IMG/VR virus record: IMGVR_UViG_2526164628_000008
Reading direction: 5' to 3' (one strand)
Length of the DNA stretch: 29,070 nucleotides
From: a virus
Lineage: Duplodnaviria; Heunggongvirae; Uroviricota; Caudoviricetes
A model generated the notes under the pieces. The model was not told the DNA's origin, did no database searches, and saw only the letters and a list, made by a program, of their open reading frames with translations. The translations under genes were made by a program, and so were the position numbers. Below, piece after piece: positions 1 to 28,550 of the stretch (positions are counted from its first letter, which is position 1; every line of letters begins with the position of its first letter).

Positions 1-389
1 GATGTTTTTCAATAAAGACATACTTCATTTCAGGCGCTTCGCGAAGTATGTCGCGGCCTTTTGGAGGATAGCCAGCTCTTCATCCCGTTCTGCCAGCTGG
101 CGTTTGAGACGTGCAATCTCGGTAGACATCTCCAGTTCACGTTCAGAAGACGTCTGCTGATTTTGCTGTTTACTGCGCCAGTTGTAGAGCTGTGATTCAT
201 ACAGGCTGAGTTCACGGGCTGCGGCAGTAACACCGATGCGTTCAGCAAGCTTCAGGGCTTCACTGCGAAATTCAGGCGAATGCTGTTTACGGGGTTTTTT
301 ACTGGTTGATACTGTTTTTGTCATGTGAGTCACCTCTGACTGAGAGTTTACTCACTTAGCCGCGTGTCCACTATTGCTGGGTAAGATCA
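1..389 (-). mobile_element. IS3 (partial copy; the element continues beyond the window start)
   Basis: Terminal sequence TGATCTTACCCAGCAATAGTGGACACGCGGCTAAGTGAG on the minus strand ending at 389 matches the IS3 end as I recall it; encodes the IS3 OrfA protein. The OrfB part lies left of the window. Confidence 0.8.
25..324 (-). CDS. insE: IS3 OrfA transposase subunit (InsE-like), helix-turn-helix protein
   Basis: Translation MTKTVSTSKKPRKQHSPEFRSEALKLAERIGVTAAARELSLYESQLYNWRSKQQ... recognised as IS3-family OrfA. Start may be the upstream ATG at 331-333 (MTHMTK...). Confidence 0.8.
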   Translation of the reverse strand: MTKTVSTSKKPRKQHSPEFRSEALKLAERIGVTAAARELSLYESQLYNWRSKQQNQQTSSERELEMSTEIARLKRQLAERDEELAILQKAATYFAKRLK

Positions 390-1153
390 GTCAGTTTTAA
401 CACGTTAGCCTCTAATGTTTTGCTTGGCCACCCTGTTTCTTGTGCACCACATTGACCAAGAATTCCATAGTTGCTAGTTTGACCATCAGGAAATTCCACT
501 GTAGCAATTAGGTCAAACCCAGCATCACCAGATGTGGGAGCTTTATTTATTTCCCTTGTGTTTAAACTACAAACTCCAAGATCTTTTCCTAAAATTTGTA
601 GAGCATTCCGAAGATTCGTTCCATAATATTTTTGCCTATCATCGGAGTTAGCATCAAAAATTCTTACGGTGCCATGTGCAGGTAAGAGAGAAATCATTGC
701 AACTTTACATACTCTGGCAAAGCTCTTTGCCCAACGTTGTGCTGCTCCTCTAATCGACTTAAAGGATCTAAGTCTAGAGCAACAAAGGAGAAAAACATAT
801 ATTCTTTGTTGTTGGTTTAGATTTTCTTTAATAATTATCTCATCACCTGAAATTATAAATGGATATATCTTTCCAAGAGCGCTTTCTCTATATTCGAGTT
901 GTGTCCAAACATCTTCTAGTTGCTCTTCAAAACGATCATTTCTCTCTGCGTCTCCATCAATTTCTTCTTCAAAATTACATTCTTCATCAATTTCTTCAAC
1001 ACTTGTCATGCCGAATTTTCTTACTGAATCTAAATCATTTTTATGCAGAGAGTTACGTCCGATATAATTAATCACCGTGAGTAACTCGGCTAAATCTGCA
1101 AACAAATGGGGAGAGTTGGGATGCATAACTCCTACTTCAAAAGTCATCATCAC
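371..1153 (-). CDS. hypothetical protein (cargo gene B); acidic N-terminal half; last 5 codons and stop supplied by the IS3 terminus, so the native C-terminus is lost or altered
   Basis: 260-aa ORF, AT-rich, overlaps the upstream gene by 17 nt (operon). The stop TAG at 371-373 lies inside the IS3 inverted repeat (IS3 ends at 389). Start uncertain among three tandem ATGs at 1145-1153 or the ATG near 1126 preceded by AGGAG. Confidence 0.55.
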   Translation of the reverse strand: MMMTFEVGVMHPNSPHLFADLAELLTVINYIGRNSLHKNDLDSVRKFGMTSVEEIDEECNFEEEIDGDAERNDRFEEQLEDVWTQLEYRESALGKIYPFIISGDEIIIKENLNQQQRIYVFLLCCSRLRSFKSIRGAAQRWAKSFARVCKVAMISLLPAHGTVRIFDANSDDRQKYYGTNLRNALQILGKDLGVCSLNTREINKAPTSGDAGFDLIATVEFPDGQTSNYGILGQCGAQETGWPSKTLEANVLKLTDLTQQ

Positions 1154-2258
1154 CTCTGCTATTTTTCTCTGCTATTTCAGAACCTATAAGCTTAATATGT
1201 TTATTGATTCTTCGTGCTACTTCATGAGCCTGTCTATCATACTCTACTGTGGCAACCATGCCTGCTGCATCTATCAAAGCCGCTTCAACTTGATAAAGTA
1301 ACTGGAGAAAGTCCTTAGTAATATCAGATGTCAATTGGTAGGCCACTGCGAGTGGAGCCCCCATTCGGAATTGCTCCAATGCCTTAGGGCTACTAACAAC
1401 AGCAGCTAATTCTCTTAAATTACGTGACTCTCCAACACGAGTTTTTTTATCCTCACCTTTTTTATATAACCACTCAGTTAGCTCTTTTATTTCTTTGTTC
1501 TTTAAGCTATTAGAGTTGATAATAGGATGACTTGGTATTGTGTCTCCATCGTCTTCGATTGAAACTCCGACAAATTGGCCTAACCGCTCATCAGCAAGTG
1601 CTGTTGATAATACTGAAAATTTAATCGTTTCTTCATCTAGTTTTTCAATACCATAAAAATCATTTTCTTTAATGATTTCATACACCGCTAAAGCGTCTAG
1701 GTTACGCTTGATATGATCCCTACGACTGCCAATAGCTCTGGCAACCTCATAGTAGCGTAGCATCGGATCCTGATTTGCATTGGTATAATCAAAAAGCTGT
1801 TTAATATATCGAGCTTTTGATAAGGGCTCCCATTGTTTGACACCAGTAATATGTCTGAAACCAAGATACGGAAGAATCTCTTCTCTTGTTTGGCGCTCAA
1901 TGACAGGAACACGATCGACTGTATGTTTTGCATTTGATGCAATTTCTCGTAGTCGAGCACTTGGATTTTCACATAGTGTCGGATCGCGTAATAATTTAAC
2001 TGCGGATAGGCGACGGTTTCCTTCAACTACAATGTACTTCCCCGGCGCGACACTGTCAGGAATGACAATCAATGGTTCTCCAGGGAAAAAACCATTTTCC
2101 GCAATAGCACTCATTAGATCTTCGATAGATGTTGAGGTTGCTATGTAGTTAATCATTCCCAATTGGTCACGAGACACGCCTTCAGGAAGTCTTGGGTTTT
2201 CTGTGTCAAGTTCCAAATCATCTAGCGGAACATAAAGTATTTCTGAATCAGCAATCAT
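1137..2258 (-). CDS. ParB N-terminal domain (ParB/Srx fold) protein, cargo gene A
   Basis: 373-aa ORF with GGAG ribosome-binding site 7 nt upstream. N-terminal region (LYVPLDDLELDTENPR ... PLIVIPDSVAPGKYIVVEGNRRLSAVKLL) fits the ParB N-terminal pattern including a GxRRxxA box (EGNRRLSA). C-terminal ~270 aa unrecognised. Confidence 0.6.
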   Translation of the reverse strand: MIADSEILYVPLDDLELDTENPRLPEGVSRDQLGMINYIATSTSIEDLMSAIAENGFFPGEPLIVIPDSVAPGKYIVVEGNRRLSAVKLLRDPTLCENPSARLREIASNAKHTVDRVPVIERQTREEILPYLGFRHITGVKQWEPLSKARYIKQLFDYTNANQDPMLRYYEVARAIGSRRDHIKRNLDALAVYEIIKENDFYGIEKLDEETIKFSVLSTALADERLGQFVGVSIEDDGDTIPSHPIINSNSLKNKEIKELTEWLYKKGEDKKTRVGESRNLRELAAVVSSPKALEQFRMGAPLAVAYQLTSDITKDFLQLLYQVEAALIDAAGMVATVEYDRQAHEVARRINKHIKLIGSEIAEKNSRGDDDF

Positions 2259-14345: not shown

Positions 14346-15538
14346 ATGAGCACAAAATTCAGAACCGTTATCACCACTGCCGGTGCAGCAAAGCTGGCAG
14401 CGGCAACCGCGCCGGGAGGGCGGAAGGTCAACATTACCACGATGGCCGTCGGGGATGGCGGTGGTAAATTGCCTGTCCCGGATGCCGGACAGACCGGGCT
14501 TATCCACGAAGTCTGGCGACATGCGCTGAACAAAATCAGCCAGGACAAACGAAACAGTAATTATATTATCGCAGAGCTGGTTATTCCGCCGGAGGTGGGC
14601 GGTTTCTGGATGCGTGAGCTTGGCCTGTACGATGATGCGGGAACGTTAATTGCCGTGGCGAACATGGCCGAAAGTTATAAGCCAGCTCTTGCCGAAGGCT
14701 CAGGGCGTTCGCAGACCTGCCGCATGGTCATCATCGTCAGCAGTGTGGCCTCAGTGGAGCTGACCATTGACACCACAACGGTGATGGCGACGCAGGATTA
14801 CGTTGATGACAAAATTGCAGAGCACGAACAGTCACGACGTCACCCGGACGCCTCGCTGACCGCAAAAGGTTTTACTCAGTTAAGCAGTGCGACCAACAGC
14901 ATGTCTGAAATGCTTGCCGCAACGCCAAAAGCCGTTAAGACGGTAATGGATGAAACGAACAAGAAAGCGCCATTAAACAGCCCTGTACTGACCGGAACGC
15001 CAACGACGCCAACTGCGCGACAGGGAACGAATAATACTCAGATCGCAAACACGGCTTTCGTTATGGCCGCGATTGCCGCCCTTGTAGACTCGTCGCCTGA
15101 CGCACTGAATACGCTGAACGAGCTGGCGGCGGCGCTGGGCAATGACCCGAATTTTGCTACCACCATGACTAATGCGCTTGCGGGTAAGCAACCGAAAGAT
15201 GCTACCCTGACGGCGCTGGCGGGGCTTGCTACTGCGGCAGACAGGTTTCCGTATTTTACGGGGAATGATGTTGCCAGCCTGGCAACCCTGACAAAAGTCG
15301 GGCGGGATATTCTGGCTAAATCGACCGTTGCCGCCGTTATCGAATATCTCGGTTTACAGGAAACGGTAAACCGAGCCGGGAACGCCGTGCAAAAAAATGG
15401 CGATACCTTGTCCGGTGGACTTACTTTTGAAAACGACTCAATCCTTGCCTGGATTCGAAATACTGACTGGGCGAAGATTGGATTTAAAAATGATGCCGAT
15501 GGTGACACTGATTCATTCATGTGGTTTGAAACGGGGGA
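14346..15538 (+). pseudogene. H: tail fibre protein H, 5' fragment (interrupted by IS2)
   Basis: N-terminal region MSTKFRTVITTAGAAKLAAATAPGG... is P2 H-like. The reading frame runs into the IS2 end at 15539 and continues as IS2-derived sequence to a stop at 15710. Confidence 0.88.
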
Positions 15539-15549
15539 TGGATTTGCCC

Positions 15550-16455
15550 CTATATTTCCAGACACCTGTTATCACTTAACCCATTACTGGCCTGCTGCCG
15601 CAGATATTCCCGTGGCGAGCGATAACCCAGTGCACTATGCGGATGCCATTCGTTATAATGCTCGAACGCCTCTGCAAGGTTCTTTGCTGCCGTTAACCCG
15701 TCTGGTTTAGGCATGATACTGATGTAGTCACGCTTTATCGTTTTCACGAAGCTCTCTGCTATGCCGTTACTCTCCGGACTCCGCACCGCCGTGTTCTTCG
15801 GTTCAAGCCCCAACATCCGGGCAAACTGCCGTGTTTCATTAGCCCGGTAGCATGAACCATTATCCGTCAGCCACTCTACTGGAGACGCCGGAAGCTCGTT
15901 GCCGAAGCGGCGTTCCACCGCTCCCAGCATTACGTCCTGTACTGTTTCACTGTCGAAGCCGCCCGTAGTGACTGCCCAGTGCAGTGCCTCACGGTCACAG
16001 CAGTCCAGCGCGAACGTGACTCGCAGTTTTTCTCCGTTATCACAGCGGAACTCGAACCCGTCAGAGCACCATCGTTGATTGCTTTCTTTCACGGCCACTT
16101 TGCCAGTATGTGCCCGTTTCGATGGCGGTACAGCGGTTTTTCGCTCAAGCAACAGCGCATTCTGGCGCATGATCCGGTAAACACGTTTGGCATTGATCGC
16201 AGGCATACCATCAAGTTCGGCCTGTCTGCGAAGCAGCGCCCATACCCGACGATAACCATACGTGGGCAGCTCTCCGATAACATGGTGTATACGGAGAAGC
16301 ACATCCGTATCATCTGAGTGACGGCTGCGGCGACCATCTTTCCAGTCATCGGTTCGTCTGAGAATTACGTGCAACTGCGCACGCGACACCCGGAGACAAC
16401 GGCTGACTAAGCTTACTCCCCATCCCCGGGCAATAAGGGCGCGTGCGCTATCCAC
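15550..16455 (-). CDS. insD: IS2 transposase OrfB (InsD)
   Basis: 301 aa, [30 protein letters not shown]...; integrase-core (DDE) transposase of IS2. Confidence 0.92.
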
Positions 16456-16778
16456 TTTTTTGCACGCCCGTATTCAACGGCTTCTTTAAGGAGTTCATTT
16501 TCCATCGTTTTTTTGCCGAGCAGGCGCTGGAGTTCTTTAATCTGCTTCATGGCAGCAGCAAGTTCAGAGGCAGGAACGACCTGCTCTCCTGCGGCCACAG
16601 CAGTAAGACTTCCCTCCTGGTATTGCTTGCGCCAGAGAAATAACTGGCTGGCTGCCACACCGTGTTGCCGGGCAACAAGGGAGACCGTCATTCCCGGTTC
16701 AAAACTCTGCTGAACAATAGCGATCTTTTCCTGTGTAGTACGCCGTCTGCGTTTCTCCGGTCCTAAGACATCAATCAT
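16413..16778 (-). CDS. insC: IS2 OrfA (InsC)
   Basis: 121 aa from [29 protein letters not shown]...; GGAG ribosome-binding site upstream. The ORF track's longer version starts outside a plausible start. Confidence 0.92.
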
Positions 16779-16874
16779 CTGCTCTCCAATGACTAGTCTA
16801 AAAACTAGTATTAAGACTATCACTTATTTAAGTGATATTGGTTGTCTGGAGATTCAGGGGGCCAGTCTAGGGGA

Positions 16875-17703
16875 TAACGGCAATGAATATTTCAAATGGA
16901 GAAGCCGCCAGAGTACTACAACAAAAGACCTGATGAATCTTAAATGGGATGCTTTGTATGTTCTTGTCAATGCCATTGTAAATGGCGAAGTCATATCAAA
17001 ATCAGCAAACGGCCTACGTATTGCTTATGGTAATTACGGATTCTTTATTCGTAATGATGGTTCAAATACATACTTCATGTTGACAAACTCCGGTGACAAC
17101 ATGGGGACTTATAACGGATTAAGGCCATTATGGATTAATAACGCTACTGGCGCTGTTTCGATGGGGCGTGGCCTTAATGTTTCAGGGGAGACGCTTTCAG
17201 ACCGTTTTGCTATTAACAGCAGTAATGGTATGTGGATTCAGATGCGCGATAACAACGCTATCTTTGGGAAAAATATAGTTAACACTGATAGCGCTCAGGC
17301 GTTGCTTCGCCAGAATCACGCTGACCGCAAGTTCATGATAGGTGGACTGGGGAACAAGCAATTTGGCATCTACATGATTAATAACTCAAGGACAGCCAAT
17401 GGCACCGATGGTCAGGCGTACATGGATAATAACGGTAACTGGCTTTGTGGCTCGCAAGTTATTCCCGGCAACTATGGCAATTTTGATTCCAGATATGTGA
17501 AAGATGTTCGACTTGGTTCACAGCAATATTATGGAGTTAACAACTGGCAAACATGGAATTTCCAGTGCCCGTCAGGTCATGTATTGTCTGGTATTAATGT
17601 TCAGGATACAGGGTCCAACTCTGCCGATAATATAGCGGGCGTTTATTACAGACCCGTTCAAAAGTATATAAATGGCACCTGGTATAATGTAGCGAGCGTT
17701 TAA
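16875..17703 (+). pseudogene. H: tail fibre protein H, 3' fragment (receptor-binding part, no own start)
   Basis: Removing IS2 and one GGGGA copy joins ...WFETGD to NGNEYFKW... in frame, giving a 673-aa H (P2 H is about 669 aa). Confidence 0.88.
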
Positions 17704-17704
17704 T

Positions 17705-18232
17705 ATGATGCACTTAAAGAACATAAAAGCGGGTAACGCTAAAACACTGGAACAGTATGAGTTAACAAAGAAACACGGAGTTATCTGGCTTTACTCTGAG
17801 GACGGAAAAAACTGGTATGAGGAAGTGAAGAACTTTCAGCCAGACACAATAAAGATTGTTTACGATGAAAATAATATTATTGTCGCTATCACCAGAGATG
17901 CTTCAACGCTTAATCCTGAAGGTTTTAGCGTTGTTGAGGTTCCTGATATTACCTCCAACCGACGTGCTGACGACTCAGGTAAATGGATGTTTAAGGATGG
18001 TGCTGTGGTTAAACGGATTTATACGGCAGATGAACAGCAACAACAGGCAGAATCACAAAAGGCAGCGTTACTTTCCGAAGCGGAAAGCGTTATTCAGCCA
18101 CTGGAACGCGCTGTCAGGCTGAATATGGCGACGGATGAGGAACGTGCACGACTGGAGTCATGGGAACGCTACAGCGTTCTGGTCAGCCGTGTGGATCCTG
18201 CAAATCCTGAATGGCCGGAAATGCCGCAATAA
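17705..18232 (+). CDS. G: tail fibre assembly chaperone G (P2 gpG)
   Basis: 175 aa immediately after H; [30 protein letters not shown]... Confidence 0.88.
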
Positions 18233-18266
18233 GTTGTATGAGCTCTAGTGTGGGCTTACATATCTA

Positions 18267-18308
18267 TGGCACAGAGTAAAGCCTAATCTGACAGTCCACT
18301 CTGTGCCA
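18267..18308. repeat. 11-bp perfect inverted repeat (TGGCACAGAGT / ACTCTGTGCCA) with 20-nt spacer
   Basis: Read directly in the G-to-cargo intergenic region; no following T-run, so not a canonical intrinsic terminator. Confidence 0.6.
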
Positions 18309-18447
18309 GAGGTGGGCATTGCTGATGTCATAAAATATTATGCCAGCAGCCGTCTTAGGGGAGTGTTTACATTTCAATGATCGGGTATGATCTCGGCATG
18401 TTAATGGTTTATTACTAAATGCTTGCGCCTATCTTTATGGAGGAGTA

Positions 18448-19347
18448 ATGAGTGGTATTCGTATAACTCAGGCTATTGATAACAATCAGATTTTAGTCAA
18501 TGTAAATACTTTTAATTATAGTGTTAATCCCTATCCACTCAAATGTCCTGACCCAAATTGCTCTGCTCATTTGGTGTATGTCAAAAGCCATATTCGTCGG
18601 AGTTTTAATAAAACCTTGCATATCCCCGCCTTCTTTAGACTGGAAAAAAATTTCACGCATGACAAATTATGTCAGTATGGAACTTCAGGATTGAATACAA
18701 TTTATGCAAGTGATTCCAGTCATGATATCAGCCGTGCGCTTGCCACAGGTAATAATATATTCCGTATACATATACTCGATGAAGATGATATCTCTAAATT
18801 AAGCAGAAAAGCTGCAGCTATGCAGGCAAATCCACCTTCTGATACTACAGACCGCGTTTATGTCAAGAGAGGTCGGAAAGCCCCCTATGTGAAGAACATG
18901 GATAGCTTACGGGAGATCTATGAATATGGAAAAGCTCACCCCAACAAGAGAAACAGCATAAAAATTGTTACTGGAACAAGTACTGTAACGTGGTCTGATT
19001 TTTTCTATGAAACAACGCAGTTAGAACGATTGTCAACTTACCTCCAGAAAGTAAAAATAGCTCAGGTTGCTGTAATTATGAAAGTGCATGTGGCGAGAAT
19101 CCCTATGGCGAAATTTAATTATCGACACTTCATTGAAGGTTCGCCAATGAGGATAAAAGGGGGCTTTAATATATATCCTACGATTCAATTAGGAAATGTT
19201 ACTCCAAAATTATTTCCGTTGAGTAGCATTGTCATGGTACTCGGTAAATTTACTATTCCAACAAATAGAAAAATGATAATGGATCCAACATTTGAGCGTG
19301 AAGTCAGAACCATAGTTTCTAGTGAAGAGCAAGTGCTAATTCTTTGA
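18448..19347 (+). CDS. hypothetical protein, cargo at the Z/fun position between G and FI
   Basis: 299-aa ORF in an AT-rich island with GGAGG ribosome-binding site (TATGGAGGAGTAATG). No recognisable domain; Cys/His-containing N-terminus (CPDPNCSAHLVYVKSH). Whether it is the P2 fun(Z) homologue is untested. Confidence 0.65.
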   Translation: MSGIRITQAIDNNQILVNVNTFNYSVNPYPLKCPDPNCSAHLVYVKSHIRRSFNKTLHIPAFFRLEKNFTHDKLCQYGTSGLNTIYASDSSHDISRALATGNNIFRIHILDEDDISKLSRKAAAMQANPPSDTTDRVYVKRGRKAPYVKNMDSLREIYEYGKAHPNKRNSIKIVTGTSTVTWSDFFYETTQLERLSTYLQKVKIAQVAVIMKVHVARIPMAKFNYRHFIEGSPMRIKGGFNIYPTIQLGNVTPKLFPLSSIVMVLGKFTIPTNRKMIMDPTFEREVRTIVSSEEQVLIL

Positions 19348-19543
19348 AATCAAGAGGATTTGGCTCGGATGATTATGTGCGGCTTATAACCATAACGTAA
19401 TGAGCGGATTTTTCTACTGCTTTTTATCATTTTGGTTAACTAAAACTAATCTCTGCTCCTCGCTCAAAGCAGACTGTCAGATTTGATAGCGTTTTGGCTA
19501 TGTAAATTGTCAGTCGGAAAATGAGTGAGTACAAATCAGGACA

Positions 19544-19572
19544 GGCGGGCGAATTGCCTGCCTTTTCTTTAT
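19544..19572 (+). terminator. putative intrinsic terminator downstream of the Z/fun-position cargo gene
   Basis: GGCGGGC-GAATT-GCCTGCC stem-loop (7 bp, one G-U) followed by the T-rich run TTTTCTTTAT. Confidence 0.45.
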
Positions 19573-19666
19573 CTGTTGTTTCATCCACTGACCAGCCAGG
19601 TCAAATAGCGTCTCATGCTCTGCACAACAGAAAATAGTTGCACCCATTAACCACGGAGTTAAACGG

Positions 19667-20857
19667 ATGAGCGACTATCATCATGGCGTGCAGGTGCTGG
19701 AGATTAACGACGGCACCCGCGTCATTTCCACTGTATCCACCGCCATTGTCGGCATGGTCTGCACGGCCAGCGATGCGGATGCGGAAACCTTCCCCCTCAA
19801 TAAACCGGTGCTGATTACCAATGTGCAGAGCGCAATTGCAAAGGCTGGTAAAAAAGGCACGCTGGCGGCATCGTTGCAGGCCATCGCTGACCAGTCAAAA
19901 CCGGTCACCGTTGTTGTGCGTGTGGAAGACGGCACCGGCGACGACGAGGAAACGAAACTCGCGCAGACCGTATCCAATATCATCGGCACCACCGACGAAA
20001 ACGGTCAGTACACCGGACTGAAAGCCCTGCTGGCGGCGGAGTCGGTAACCGGTGTTAAACCGCGTATTCTCGGCGTGCCGGGGCTGGATACCAAAGAGGT
20101 GGCTGTTGCACTGGCATCAGTCTGTCAGAAGCTGCGCGCTTTCGGGTATATCAGCGCATGGGGCTGTAAAACCATTTCCGAGGTGAAAGCCTACCGCCAG
20201 AATTTCAGCCAGCGTGAGCTGATGGTCATCTGGCCAGATTTCCTCGCATGGGATACGGTCACCAGTACCACCGCCACCGCGTATGCCACCGCCCGTGCGC
20301 TGGGTCTGCGCGCTAAAATCGACCAGGAGCAGGGCTGGCATAAAACGCTGTCCAATGTCGGGGTAAACGGTGTTACCGGCATCAGTGCCTCTGTATTCTG
20401 GGATTTGCAGGAGTCCGGCACCGATGCTGACCTGTTGAACGAGTCAGGTGTCACAACGCTGATTCGCCGTGACGGTTTCCGCTTCTGGGGTAACCGTACC
20501 TGCTCTGATGACCCGCTGTTCCTCTTTGAAAACTACACCCGCACCGCGCAGGTGCTGGCCGACACGATGGCTGAGGCGCACATGTGGGCGGTGGACAAGC
20601 CCATCACCGCAACGCTGATTCGCGACATCGTTGACGGCATCAATGCCAAATTCCGTGAGCTGAAAACAAACGGCTATATCGTGGATGCGACCTGCTGGTT
20701 CAGCGAAGAATCCAACGATGCGGAAACCCTCAAGGCCGGAAAACTGTATATCGACTACGACTATACACCGGTGCCTCCTCTTGAAAACCTGACCCTGCGC
20801 CAGCGTATTACCGATAAATACCTGGCAAATCTGGTCACCTCGGTTAACAGCAATTAA
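19667..20857 (+). CDS. FI: tail sheath protein FI (P2 gpFI)
   Basis: 396 aa, MSDYHHGVQVLEINDGTRVISTVSTAIVGMV... Confidence 0.92.
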   Translation: MSDYHHGVQVLEINDGTRVISTVSTAIVGMVCTASDADAETFPLNKPVLITNVQSAIAKAGKKGTLAASLQAIADQSKPVTVVVRVEDGTGDDEETKLAQTVSNIIGTTDENGQYTGLKALLAAESVTGVKPRILGVPGLDTKEVAVALASVCQKLRAFGYISAWGCKTISEVKAYRQNFSQRELMVIWPDFLAWDTVTSTTATAYATARALGLRAKIDQEQGWHKTLSNVGVNGVTGISASVFWDLQESGTDADLLNESGVTTLIRRDGFRFWGNRTCSDDPLFLFENYTRTAQVLADTMAEAHMWAVDKPITATLIRDIVDGINAKFRELKTNGYIVDATCWFSEESNDAETLKAGKLYIDYDYTPVPPLENLTLRQRITDKYLANLVTSVNSN

Positions 20858-26423: not shown

Positions 26424-26504
26424 ATCCTCAATTTGCCTGCTGCTTAATGCATTGCAGATGATTTGCTTCCGTTATACTAGCGTCAGTTGATAGCGGGAGT
26501 ATTT

Positions 26505-27407
26505 ATGAATCAATCTTATGGACGGCTGGTCAGTCGGGCGGCGATTGCTGCGACGGCGATGGCTTCGTTGCTATTGCTGATTAAAATTTTTGCATGGTGG
26601 TATACCGGGTCGGTGAGTATTCTCGCCGCGCTGGTGGATTCGCTGGTGGATATCGGCGCGTCGTTGACGAATTTATTGGTGGTGCGATATTCCCTGCAAC
26701 CTGCCGACGATAATCACTCGTTTGGTCACGGTAAAGCTGAGTCCCTCGCGGCGCTGGCGCAAAGTATGTTTATCTCCGGTTCGGCACTATTCCTGTTTTT
26801 GACGGGTATTCAACATCTGATATCTCCAACACCGATGACAGATCCAGGCGTCGGGGTTATCGTGACAATTGTGGCGCTAATTTGTACGATTATCCTTGTC
26901 TCGTTTCAGCGTTGGGTGGTGCGGCGGACGCAAAGCCAGGCGGTGCGGGCTGATATGCTACATTACCAGTCTGATGTTATGATGAACGGCGCAATTCTGC
27001 TGGCGCTGGGGTTGTCCTGGTACGGCTGGCATCGCGCCGATGCTCTGTTTGCATTGGGAATCGGCATCTATATTTTATATAGCGCGTTACGCATGGGATA
27101 TGAGGCGGTACAGTCATTACTGGATCGCGCATTGCCTGATGAGGAACGGCAAGAAATTATTGATATCGTGACTTCCTGGCCGGGTGTTAGCGGCGCTCAC
27201 GATCTTCGCACGCGGCAGTCAGGGCCGACCCGCTTTATTCAGATTCATTTGGAAATGGAAGACTCTCTGCCTTTGGTTCAGGCACATATGGTGGCGGATC
27301 AGGTAGAGCAGGCTATTTTACGGCGTTTTCCGGGATCGGATGTAATTATCCATCAGGACCCCTGTTCCGTCGTACCCAGGGAGGGTAAACGGTCTATGCT
27401 TTCATAA
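26505..27407 (+). CDS. fieF: cation diffusion facilitator family Fe/Zn efflux transporter FieF (YiiP)
   Basis: 300 aa from [49 protein letters not shown]...; recognised as enterobacterial FieF. Confidence 0.9.
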
Positions 27408-27587
27408 TCAGTATAAAAGAGAGCCAGACCCGCATTTTGTGTATAAAATACCGCCATTTGGCCTGACCTGAATCAATTCAGCAGGAAGTGATTGTTATAC
27501 TATTTGCACATTCGTTGGATCACTTCGATGTGCAAGAAGACTTCCGGCAACAGATTTCATTTTGCATTCCAAAGTTCAGAGGTAGTC

Positions 27588-28550
27588 ATGATTAAGAAAA
27601 TCGGTGTGTTGACAAGCGGCGGTGATGCGCCAGGCATGAACGCCGCAATTCGCGGGGTTGTTCGTTCTGCGCTGACAGAAGGTCTGGAAGTAATGGGTAT
27701 TTATGACGGCTATCTGGGTCTGTATGAAGACCGTATGGTACAGCTAGACCGTTACAGCGTGTCTGACATGATCAACCGTGGCGGTACGTTCCTCGGTTCT
27801 GCGCGTTTCCCGGAATTCCGCGACGAGAACATCCGCGCCGTGGCTATCGAAAACCTGAAAAAACGTGGTATCGACGCGCTGGTGGTTATCGGCGGTGACG
27901 GTTCCTACATGGGTGCAATGCGTCTGACCGAAATGGGCTTCCCGTGCATCGGTCTGCCGGGCACTATCGACAACGACATCAAAGGCACTGACTACACTAT
28001 CGGTTTCTTCACTGCGCTGAGCACCGTTGTAGAAGCGATCGACCGTCTGCGTGACACCTCTTCTTCTCACCAGCGTATTTCCGTGGTGGAAGTGATGGGC
28101 CGTTATTGTGGCGATCTGACCCTGGCTGCGGCCATTGCCGGTGGCTGTGAATTCGTTGTGGTTCCGGAAGTTGAATTCAGCCGTGAAGACCTGGTAAACG
28201 AAATCAAAGCGGGTATCGCGAAAGGTAAAAAACACGCGATCGTGGCGATTACCGAACATATGTGTGATGTTGACGAACTGGCGCATTTCATCGAGAAAGA
28301 AACCGGTCGTGAAACCCGCGCAACTGTGCTGGGCCACATCCAGCGCGGTGGTTCTCCGGTGCCTTACGACCGTATTCTGGCTTCCCGTATGGGCGCTTAC
28401 GCTATCGATCTGCTGCTGGCAGGTTACGGCGGTCGTTGCGTAGGTATCCAGAACGAACAGTTGGTTCACCACGACATCATCGACGCTATCGAAAACATGA
28501 AGCGTCCGTTCAAAGGCGACTGGCTGGACTGCGCGAAAAAACTGTATTAA
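27588..28550 (+). CDS. pfkA: ATP-dependent 6-phosphofructokinase I
   Basis: 320 aa from [26 protein letters not shown]...; classic PfkA sequence. The ORF track start at 27492 is an upstream extension. Confidence 0.95.

Follow-up and report, generated by a model that had tools for sequence, protein, structure and literature searches.

A one-gene cargo cassette at the Z/fun site of a P2-like prophage encodes a conserved protein with a predicted zinc-binding domain and OB-fold, a candidate phage-exclusion factor

What is the gene that sits alone in a P2-like prophage between the tail genes G and FI, and could it protect the lysogen against other phages? We addressed this question in a stretch of 29,070 nucleotides, referred to here as the window, for which an initial annotation had described a gene for a 299-residue protein in an AT-rich island between G and FI, preceded by a strong ribosome-binding site, and had regarded it as an orphan that might be a single-gene exclusion protein or a divergent homologue of fun(Z). 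The gene is present on the plus strand, with an ATG at 18448 and a stop codon at 19345-19347, and its neighbours are the tail-fibre assembly gene G (17705-18232) and the tail sheath gene FI (19667-20857). The base composition agrees with the description of an island, GC content being 0.35-0.40 over 18200-19600 versus 0.52-0.59 in the flanks. The gene itself is made up of the following features:

18448-19347, plus strand: coding sequence for 299 amino acids (34.1 kDa, pI 9.76), corresponding to Wphi gp44, WP_000014362.1 and PHROG 7195
18440-18446, plus strand: Shine-Dalgarno sequence GGAGGAG, read directly from the sequence

The ribosome-binding site was confirmed: GGAGGAG ends 2 nt 5' of the ATG and the core GGAGG lies 4 nt upstream of it. 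A run of 299 stop-free codons is expected by chance with p ~4e-10 given the base composition of the cassette itself; the opposite strand of the interval holds just short open reading frames of at most 55 aa, and a scan of the interval with Rfam returned no RNA family. Because dN/dS is 0.15-0.22 among the window copy and its orthologues in Serratia, Proteus and Morganella, we conclude that the reading frame is a genuine gene under constraint. Short alleles of the E. coli gene (81 and 66 aa), frameshifted or internally duplicated, are found in public assemblies, so that some carriers have the gene inactivated.

To delimit the cargo, we used an alignment with P2 and P2-EC67, in which the common backbone stops at ~18316 and restarts at ~19456. 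The interval contains the following features:

18261-18314, plus strand: hairpin of the phage backbone right after gene G (-21.6 kcal/mol, z -2.5), without a U-tract
18285-18309, plus strand: left inverted-repeat arm, named 'left inverted repeat' in AJ512685
18313-18341, plus strand: weak candidate for a sigma-70-like promoter, TGGGCA-17-TATTAT, at the left edge of the cargo
~18317-19456, plus strand: AT-rich cargo cassette of ~1.14 kb with one gene, GC ~0.37 (versus 0.55)
19459-19483, plus strand: right inverted-repeat arm in the phage backbone, named 'right inverted repeat' in AJ512685
19543-19563, plus strand: intrinsic terminator in the phage backbone, a hairpin followed by a T-run (-17.9 kcal/mol, z -4.1)

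The cassette consists of one gene with a leader of ~130 nt and a trailer of ~110 nt. It has the conserved G-FI junctions, the inverted-repeat flanks and the foreign base composition of cargo at the Z/fun site, the variable insertion site being bracketed by the two repeat arms, of which the left one is contained in a hairpin that P2 and P2-EC67 have kept. The promoter candidate matches the consensus at 9 of 12 positions and coincides in position with the -35/-10 annotated in P2-EC67; it lies in AT-rich DNA, and the region holds 10 promoter-like sites versus 4.6 +/- 2.6 expected by chance. Between G and the 299-residue gene, neither the terminator scan nor RNA folding found a terminator. The gene had also been credited with a downstream terminator of its own. 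This needs correction: the hairpin at 19543-19563 lies ~90 nt beyond the right boundary of the cargo, and because it is kept in P2 and P2-EC67, whose cargos differ, it belongs to the backbone, where it probably ends the transcripts that cross the cargo. Inside the cargo there is just a weak hairpin with a U-rich tail at ~19401-19432, which was read by eye and not flagged by the scan.

The idea that the gene is an orphan was not borne out. Its product is 100% identical to the product of Wphi orf44 (gp44, AAN28239.1; tblastn against AY135739), and the 1434-nt G-FI interval of Wphi is 99.7% identical to that of the window at the nucleotide level, with the gene in the same position and orientation. 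The profile of PHROG 7195, a function-unknown family and the sole library family to match the query, aligns across residues 1-299 of 299 (E 5.8e-218). Wphi gp44 is annotated without a function, and its gene entered GenBank with the deposition of the Wphi genome. The whole window is 100% identical to a prophage of TW10590, in which the protein is listed as WP_000014362.1, 'hypothetical protein'; compared with Wphi, the prophage differs in its A-Q cargo and in an IS2-like insertion in gene H. Carriers among phages are Wphi, Yersinia phage HQ103 and one isolate named 'Peduovirus P2', that is, three distinct phages in 50,697 records (tblastn, E <= 0.01). Among 5426 complete E. coli genomes, the flanks match in 1033 and the full interval in 115, corresponding to ~11% of the backbone-matching genomes and ~2% of all complete genomes. 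No copy from the close clade was found among species-representative genomes.

The family is nevertheless much larger than these close copies. A word-indexed search returned 12 clusters with at least 65% identity, all of ~299 aa, from E. coli, Serratia, Morganella, Leclercia and Proteus. When 1.84 billion representatives were searched exhaustively with HMMER (E <= 1e-3), the family grew to 151 or more clusters at 50% identity, nearly all of them 295-330 aa long, and the family size is a second argument against an orphan. Further members come from Halomonadaceae, Pseudomonas, Cellvibrio, Paraburkholderia and Gallionella as well as plasmid-borne members from Vibrio, Pseudoalteromonas and Bacillus. 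Conservation was assessed on 112 sequences, which outside the close clade have only 16-22% identity to the query. The N-terminus, previously described as containing Cys and His, can now be described more sharply: C33, C38, H71 and C75 are invariant in all 112 members. Moreover, R106, Y147, W182, F185 and Q295 are conserved at 91-99%, and the family shares a conserved N-terminal sequence (MSGIKI or MGIKM). Apart from the four putative ligands, acidic residues, His and Asn all stay below 90% conservation in the 112 sequences. Searches with known families gave little: the query had no hit in PADLOC-DB v2.0.0 at E <= 1 and no match in Pfam or NCBIfam, the 112 members had no meaningful match in Pfam or PADLOC (scattered single PADLOC matches, best E 3e-4), and a sequence search of the PDB with two profiles returned noise (SBP zinc finger, E 0.8; ZNF295, E 9.5).

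We took advantage of structure prediction to examine the architecture of the protein, for which two parts of the gene are relevant:

18544-18672, plus strand: codons of the C33-x4-C38...H71-x3-C75 motif, a predicted zinc site
18895-19344, plus strand: codons of residues ~150-299, a helical lead-in and a predicted OB-fold

The AlphaFold2 model built from 49 sequences has a mean pLDDT of 78 and a pTM of 0.69; an earlier model from 13 close sequences had been unusable (pLDDT 46.9). Per 10-residue block, residues 150-299 have a pLDDT of 80-95, mostly ~90, and the N-terminal half is modelled with moderate confidence (38-87). The four invariant Cys/His putative ligands have knuckle-type spacing and lie inside a beta-rich N-terminal domain (residues ~1-80) with predicted strands at 41-45, 48-52, 55-59 and 62-65. 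In the C-terminal part, the predicted model has the five-stranded beta-barrel topology of the OB-fold superfamily, and Foldseek searches of the PDB and BFVD agree with this assignment (MCM2, E 4.5e-4; SSB; tRNA_anti); in these databases there was no full-length match, the TM-score for the whole protein being at most 0.28. Known catalytic and membrane domains are absent from the protein, which is basic and has no hydrophobic or membrane segment. In the predicted architecture, a CCHC zinc domain is followed by a helical linker and then by an OB-fold; none of the parts is recognisable as an enzyme domain. Binding of single-stranded DNA or RNA would be consistent with the pI of 9.76 and with the near-invariant aromatic residues Y147, W182 and F185. 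Of note, the OB-fold is a generic fold, which, like the moderate confidence of the N-terminal half of the model, weighs against the exclusion hypothesis presented below. Modules that combine zinc with an OB-fold to bind single-stranded DNA (the MCM N-terminal domain, the MCM10 internal domain and RPA70 DBD-C) have 6-15% sequence identity to the protein; their zinc module is inserted in or follows the OB-fold, whereas here it precedes it, and unlike them the 299-residue protein has no ATPase or other partner domain. The likeness is one of fold class, not family membership. Two further roles were considered and rejected, namely a membrane superinfection-exclusion protein, because there is no hydrophobic segment, and a tail-fibre or chaperone role, because the gene occurs solo outside any tail module.

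The genomic company of the gene bears on what it might do. In the loci examined, the gene is always solitary, and the cassette moves as a one-gene unit among unrelated mobile elements. A copy with 88% identity lies in the early-right region of a lambdoid prophage, after the replication genes, flanked on one side by lambda-P-like, MT-A70, DUF968 and GIY-YIG genes and on the other by HNH and lysis genes. Its nucleotide homology to the window starts at ~18314, which is the left edge of the cassette and marks the mobile unit. The lambdoid copy retains the same leader of ~130 nt and has an extra insertion of ~107 nt. The copies in Serratia, Morganella and Proteus are 65-73% identical to the E. coli gene. 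In Serratia, the gene is located in an integrase-bounded island directly after a type I restriction endonuclease (E = 0) and JukA (8e-52); in Morganella, it is located in an integrase-bounded island at a prophage end, adjoining a retron I-B reverse transcriptase (3e-91) and an ATPase-Toprim protein (2e-225); in Proteus, it lies beside colicin/pyocin genes; and in Leclercia, it is within an AlpA-containing island. The Serratia, Morganella and Proteus copies also have conserved AT-rich blocks ~300 nt upstream (for example TTACTnATTTT...AGTAACT and TTTTAAAnnAGTAAG); the E. coli cassette lacks these blocks, which may represent a common promoter or operator.

Distant members of the family adjoin TIR, SLFN and SymE proteins, a Tn7-like element that carries PIN-TPR-GreABC, Olokun OloA/OloB and an 809-aa SIR2-domain (ThsA-like) protein. 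When 87 neighbours within ~6 kb were pooled and searched with PADLOC, matches to GajA/B, RT_UG17, RT-SLATT, RmrA, AbiTii and PDC-M11 were also obtained; these defence matches are a raw tally, mostly pooled across loci rather than counted locus by locus. Several relatives have ordinary metabolic neighbours only. On plasmid pFP31 of Vibrio tubiashii, a family member next to AbiH is split into two annotated reading frames and is probably a pseudogene; the cluster also holds a GIY-YIG nuclease and large AAA/P-loop NTPases. A conserved upstream partner in the distant relatives was considered and rejected, the two upstream reading frames being unrelated to each other.

The insertion site itself has been linked to defence. 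Vassallo 2022 (PMC9519451) described the fun locus as a second defence-enriched site of P2-like prophages and validated three systems there. The tail-gene hotspot is listed by both Egorov et al. 2024 and Moura de Sousa et al. 2026, and in the latter study of P2 and P4 (NAR) it holds 16% of the P2 defence systems. In the same study, 6 of 8 random hotspot cargos of unknown function were protective, all of them from P4. Rousset et al. 2022 analysed the A-Q hotspot alone. A search of the available text and supplements of the main E. coli defence screens and of DefensePredictor found neither the accession nor the sequence of the 299-residue protein.

Based on these observations, our working hypothesis is that the gene forms an accessory ('moron') unit of its own at the Z/fun site of the P2-like prophage and that its product, a basic soluble protein of 34 kDa in which a helical linker joins an N-terminal CCHC zinc-binding beta domain to a C-terminal OB-fold, would act as a stand-alone phage-exclusion protein through binding rather than catalysis. 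Specifically, we suggest that the OB-fold protein would attach to single-stranded nucleic acid from the incoming phage, or to one of its nucleoprotein intermediates, and thereby block its replication, recombination or expression. Such a protein would be a stoichiometric 'poison' of the single-stranded DNA metabolism of a competitor, similar in spirit to Tin. Different parts of this hypothesis stand on different ground. We infer that the protein binds zinc and nucleic acid, that it is expressed from the prophage and that it has a role in defence, the last of these from location and association; the binding mechanism is suggested by the fold class, the charge and the absent catalytic signatures; the target and a mode of action by poisoning or sequestering are speculative. 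The earlier suggestion of an exclusion protein has circumstantial support, in that the hotspot location, the one-gene mobility and the defence neighbours speak for it, while the lack of a match to any defence HMM, the absence from the defence screens and the metabolic neighbours of several relatives speak against it. We also count in favour of exclusion that an insertion sequence disrupts the tail-fibre gene of this prophage and leaves the 299-residue gene intact. Taken together, a prophage exclusion factor that binds nucleic acid through a zinc/OB-fold protein and is carried on a moron cassette is the best reading, and we hold it tentatively.

If the protein excludes phages, it would represent a new and compact (0.9 kb) defence family that PADLOC, Pfam and NCBIfam have missed and a rare form of immunity in which neither an enzymatic nor a pore-forming effector is obvious, and it could inform how prophages interfere with the replication of their competitors. 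In the widest version of the hypothesis, the gene would found a widespread family of single-protein immunity in Proteobacteria and Bacillota, distributed over phages, plasmids and islands as judged from its sequence relatives, in which a zinc/OB-fold protein with no enzymatic or membrane effector captures a single-stranded nucleic-acid or nucleoprotein intermediate; we consider this version unlikely. If the protein is inactive in defence, it would still define a conserved zinc/OB-fold family that merits its own entry in databases. New here are the family itself, the boundaries of the cassette, the invariant CCHC signature, the prediction of an OB-fold and the repeated occurrence of defence systems in the neighbourhood. 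The observation holds but is of an ordinary kind: the gene is hotspot cargo already deposited with Wphi, a reasonable candidate for a test at the bench and not yet a discovery.

Among the alternatives, the one that survives best is that the gene is moron or selfish cargo with no part in defence, such as a DNA- or RNA-binding regulator or a host-fitness factor, and that the apparent association with defence merely reflects residence in generic integration hotspots. P2 hotspots do carry other cargo, including partition systems and a cytolethal distending toxin (Rousset et al. 2022), machine learning predicted only 15-32% of the unknown P2 proteins to be antiviral (Moura de Sousa et al. 2026), and some relatives have purely metabolic or transposase neighbours. 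Against this alternative, direct neighbours of the gene in unrelated taxa repeatedly include validated defence systems, and the protein has neither a DNA-binding regulator domain (HTH or similar) nor similarity to virulence factors; we regard this explanation as improbable, if still worth serious attention.

Distinctly less probable is that the protein works by abortive infection, with the OB-fold sensing phage nucleic acid and the infected cell being killed or arrested, either because the CCHC domain is a cryptic treble-clef (His-Me/HNH-like) nuclease or because it recruits a host nuclease. The arrangement C-x4-C...H-x3-C around a beta-hairpin region resembles treble-clef zinc sites, H48 and R106 are conserved in 61% and 91% of the members, and the defence-island context would suit a sensor-effector protein equally. 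However, the conservation profile, in which no acidic, His or Asn residue beyond the four putative ligands reaches 90%, argues against an active site, sequence searches identified no nuclease family, and the structure matches cover the OB-fold part only.

A role in the service of the phage itself, during the lytic cycle or in counter-defence, is likewise a poor prospect. The protein could, for example, be an accessory single-stranded DNA-binding protein that protects replication intermediates or inhibits a defence sensor of the host, and many replication proteins that bind single-stranded DNA are built from an OB-fold plus zinc. Because the hairpin after G has no U-tract and no terminator follows G, read-through from the late V-G operon is plausible and indeed likely, and the co-orientation with the late tail operons together with the weak promoter match means that this could be a lytic-cycle gene and not a lysogenic-conversion gene. 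The position of the lambdoid copy after replication genes points in the same direction. On the other hand, the gene is carried by just three distinct phages in the 50,697 records, most members are in chromosomal or plasmid islands by defence systems and integrases and not in replication modules, and the gene is dispensable because most P2-like phages bear other cargo at this site.

Finally, the proposal that the 299-residue protein is a divergent homologue of Fun(Z) that blocks T5 has the shared G-FI insertion site in its favour and is refuted at the sequence level to the point of having next to no probability, since the proteins differ in size and strand and BLASTP against NP_046777.1 gave a best E of 3.6 over 31 residues. 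P2 Fun(Z), which blocks T5 and confers FUdR sensitivity, is a protein of 528 aa whose gene runs on the opposite strand, whereas the window gene lies on the same strand as G and FI. The two occupy the same insertion site within the same inverted-repeat backbone and both are AT-rich foreign cargo, yet an alignment of the two cargos has just the flanking backbone in common; to judge from sequence, they are positional analogues only. This corrects the assumption that occupants of the Z/fun site are related to fun(Z), which they need not be. Homology to P2 Tin was also considered and rejected (hhalign probability 0.1%, E 0.64), and Tin resides in the A-Q hotspot rather than in the Z/fun (G-FI) site. 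Tin reportedly excludes T-even phages by poisoning the T4 single-stranded DNA-binding protein gp32, in work attributed to Mosig et al. 1997. It serves here as a functional model, as a small, single, non-enzymatic prophage protein from a P2 hotspot, which is what we propose for the 299-residue protein.

The identity with gp44 raises the possibility of a link to the biology of Wphi. Work in the 1960s is said to have connected the Wphi prophage with restriction of lambda and with abortive infection by T2/T4 in E. coli W, and to our knowledge the determinant of these exclusion phenotypes has never been mapped. The 299-residue gene might be the determinant of one of them, namely the abortive infection by T2/T4. 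The A-Q hotspot of Wphi (AY135739, 29419-32589) contains a DNA cytosine methylase gene (mth) and, on the opposite strand, the genes for gp96 and gp98. Because this hotspot holds a cytosine methylase and two uncharacterised genes, either locus could underlie these phenotypes. The three genes may form a restriction-modification-like module that could explain the restriction of lambda by E. coli W, and this phenotype fits better with the methylase-containing A-Q cargo than with the 299-residue gene.

In the window, the A-Q hotspot (371-2258, minus strand) has a different content, a two-gene cassette for proteins of 260 aa and 373 aa. The larger of the two matches PD-Lambda-5_A (E 1.6e-28) in its N-terminal half only, and neither protein has a match in Pfam. 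This cassette is 96.8% identical to that of Yersinia phage HQ103 and absent from Wphi, from which it follows that the two hotspots assort independently. Elsewhere in the prophage, an IS2-like element of the IS3 family (1330 nt, 15540-16869, with orfA/orfB on the minus strand) interrupts the tail-fibre gene H, leaving the parts 14346-15539 and 16870-17703. Against the intact H of a related IMG/VR prophage, the junction overlaps by ~6 nt, consistent with a target-site duplication. Because H is split, the prophage is probably unable to make tail fibres. At its right end, ogr is followed by the host genes fieF and pfkA (26487-28550), placing the attachment site at the location of the Wphi/L-413C type, as in the RefSeq annotation of TW10590.
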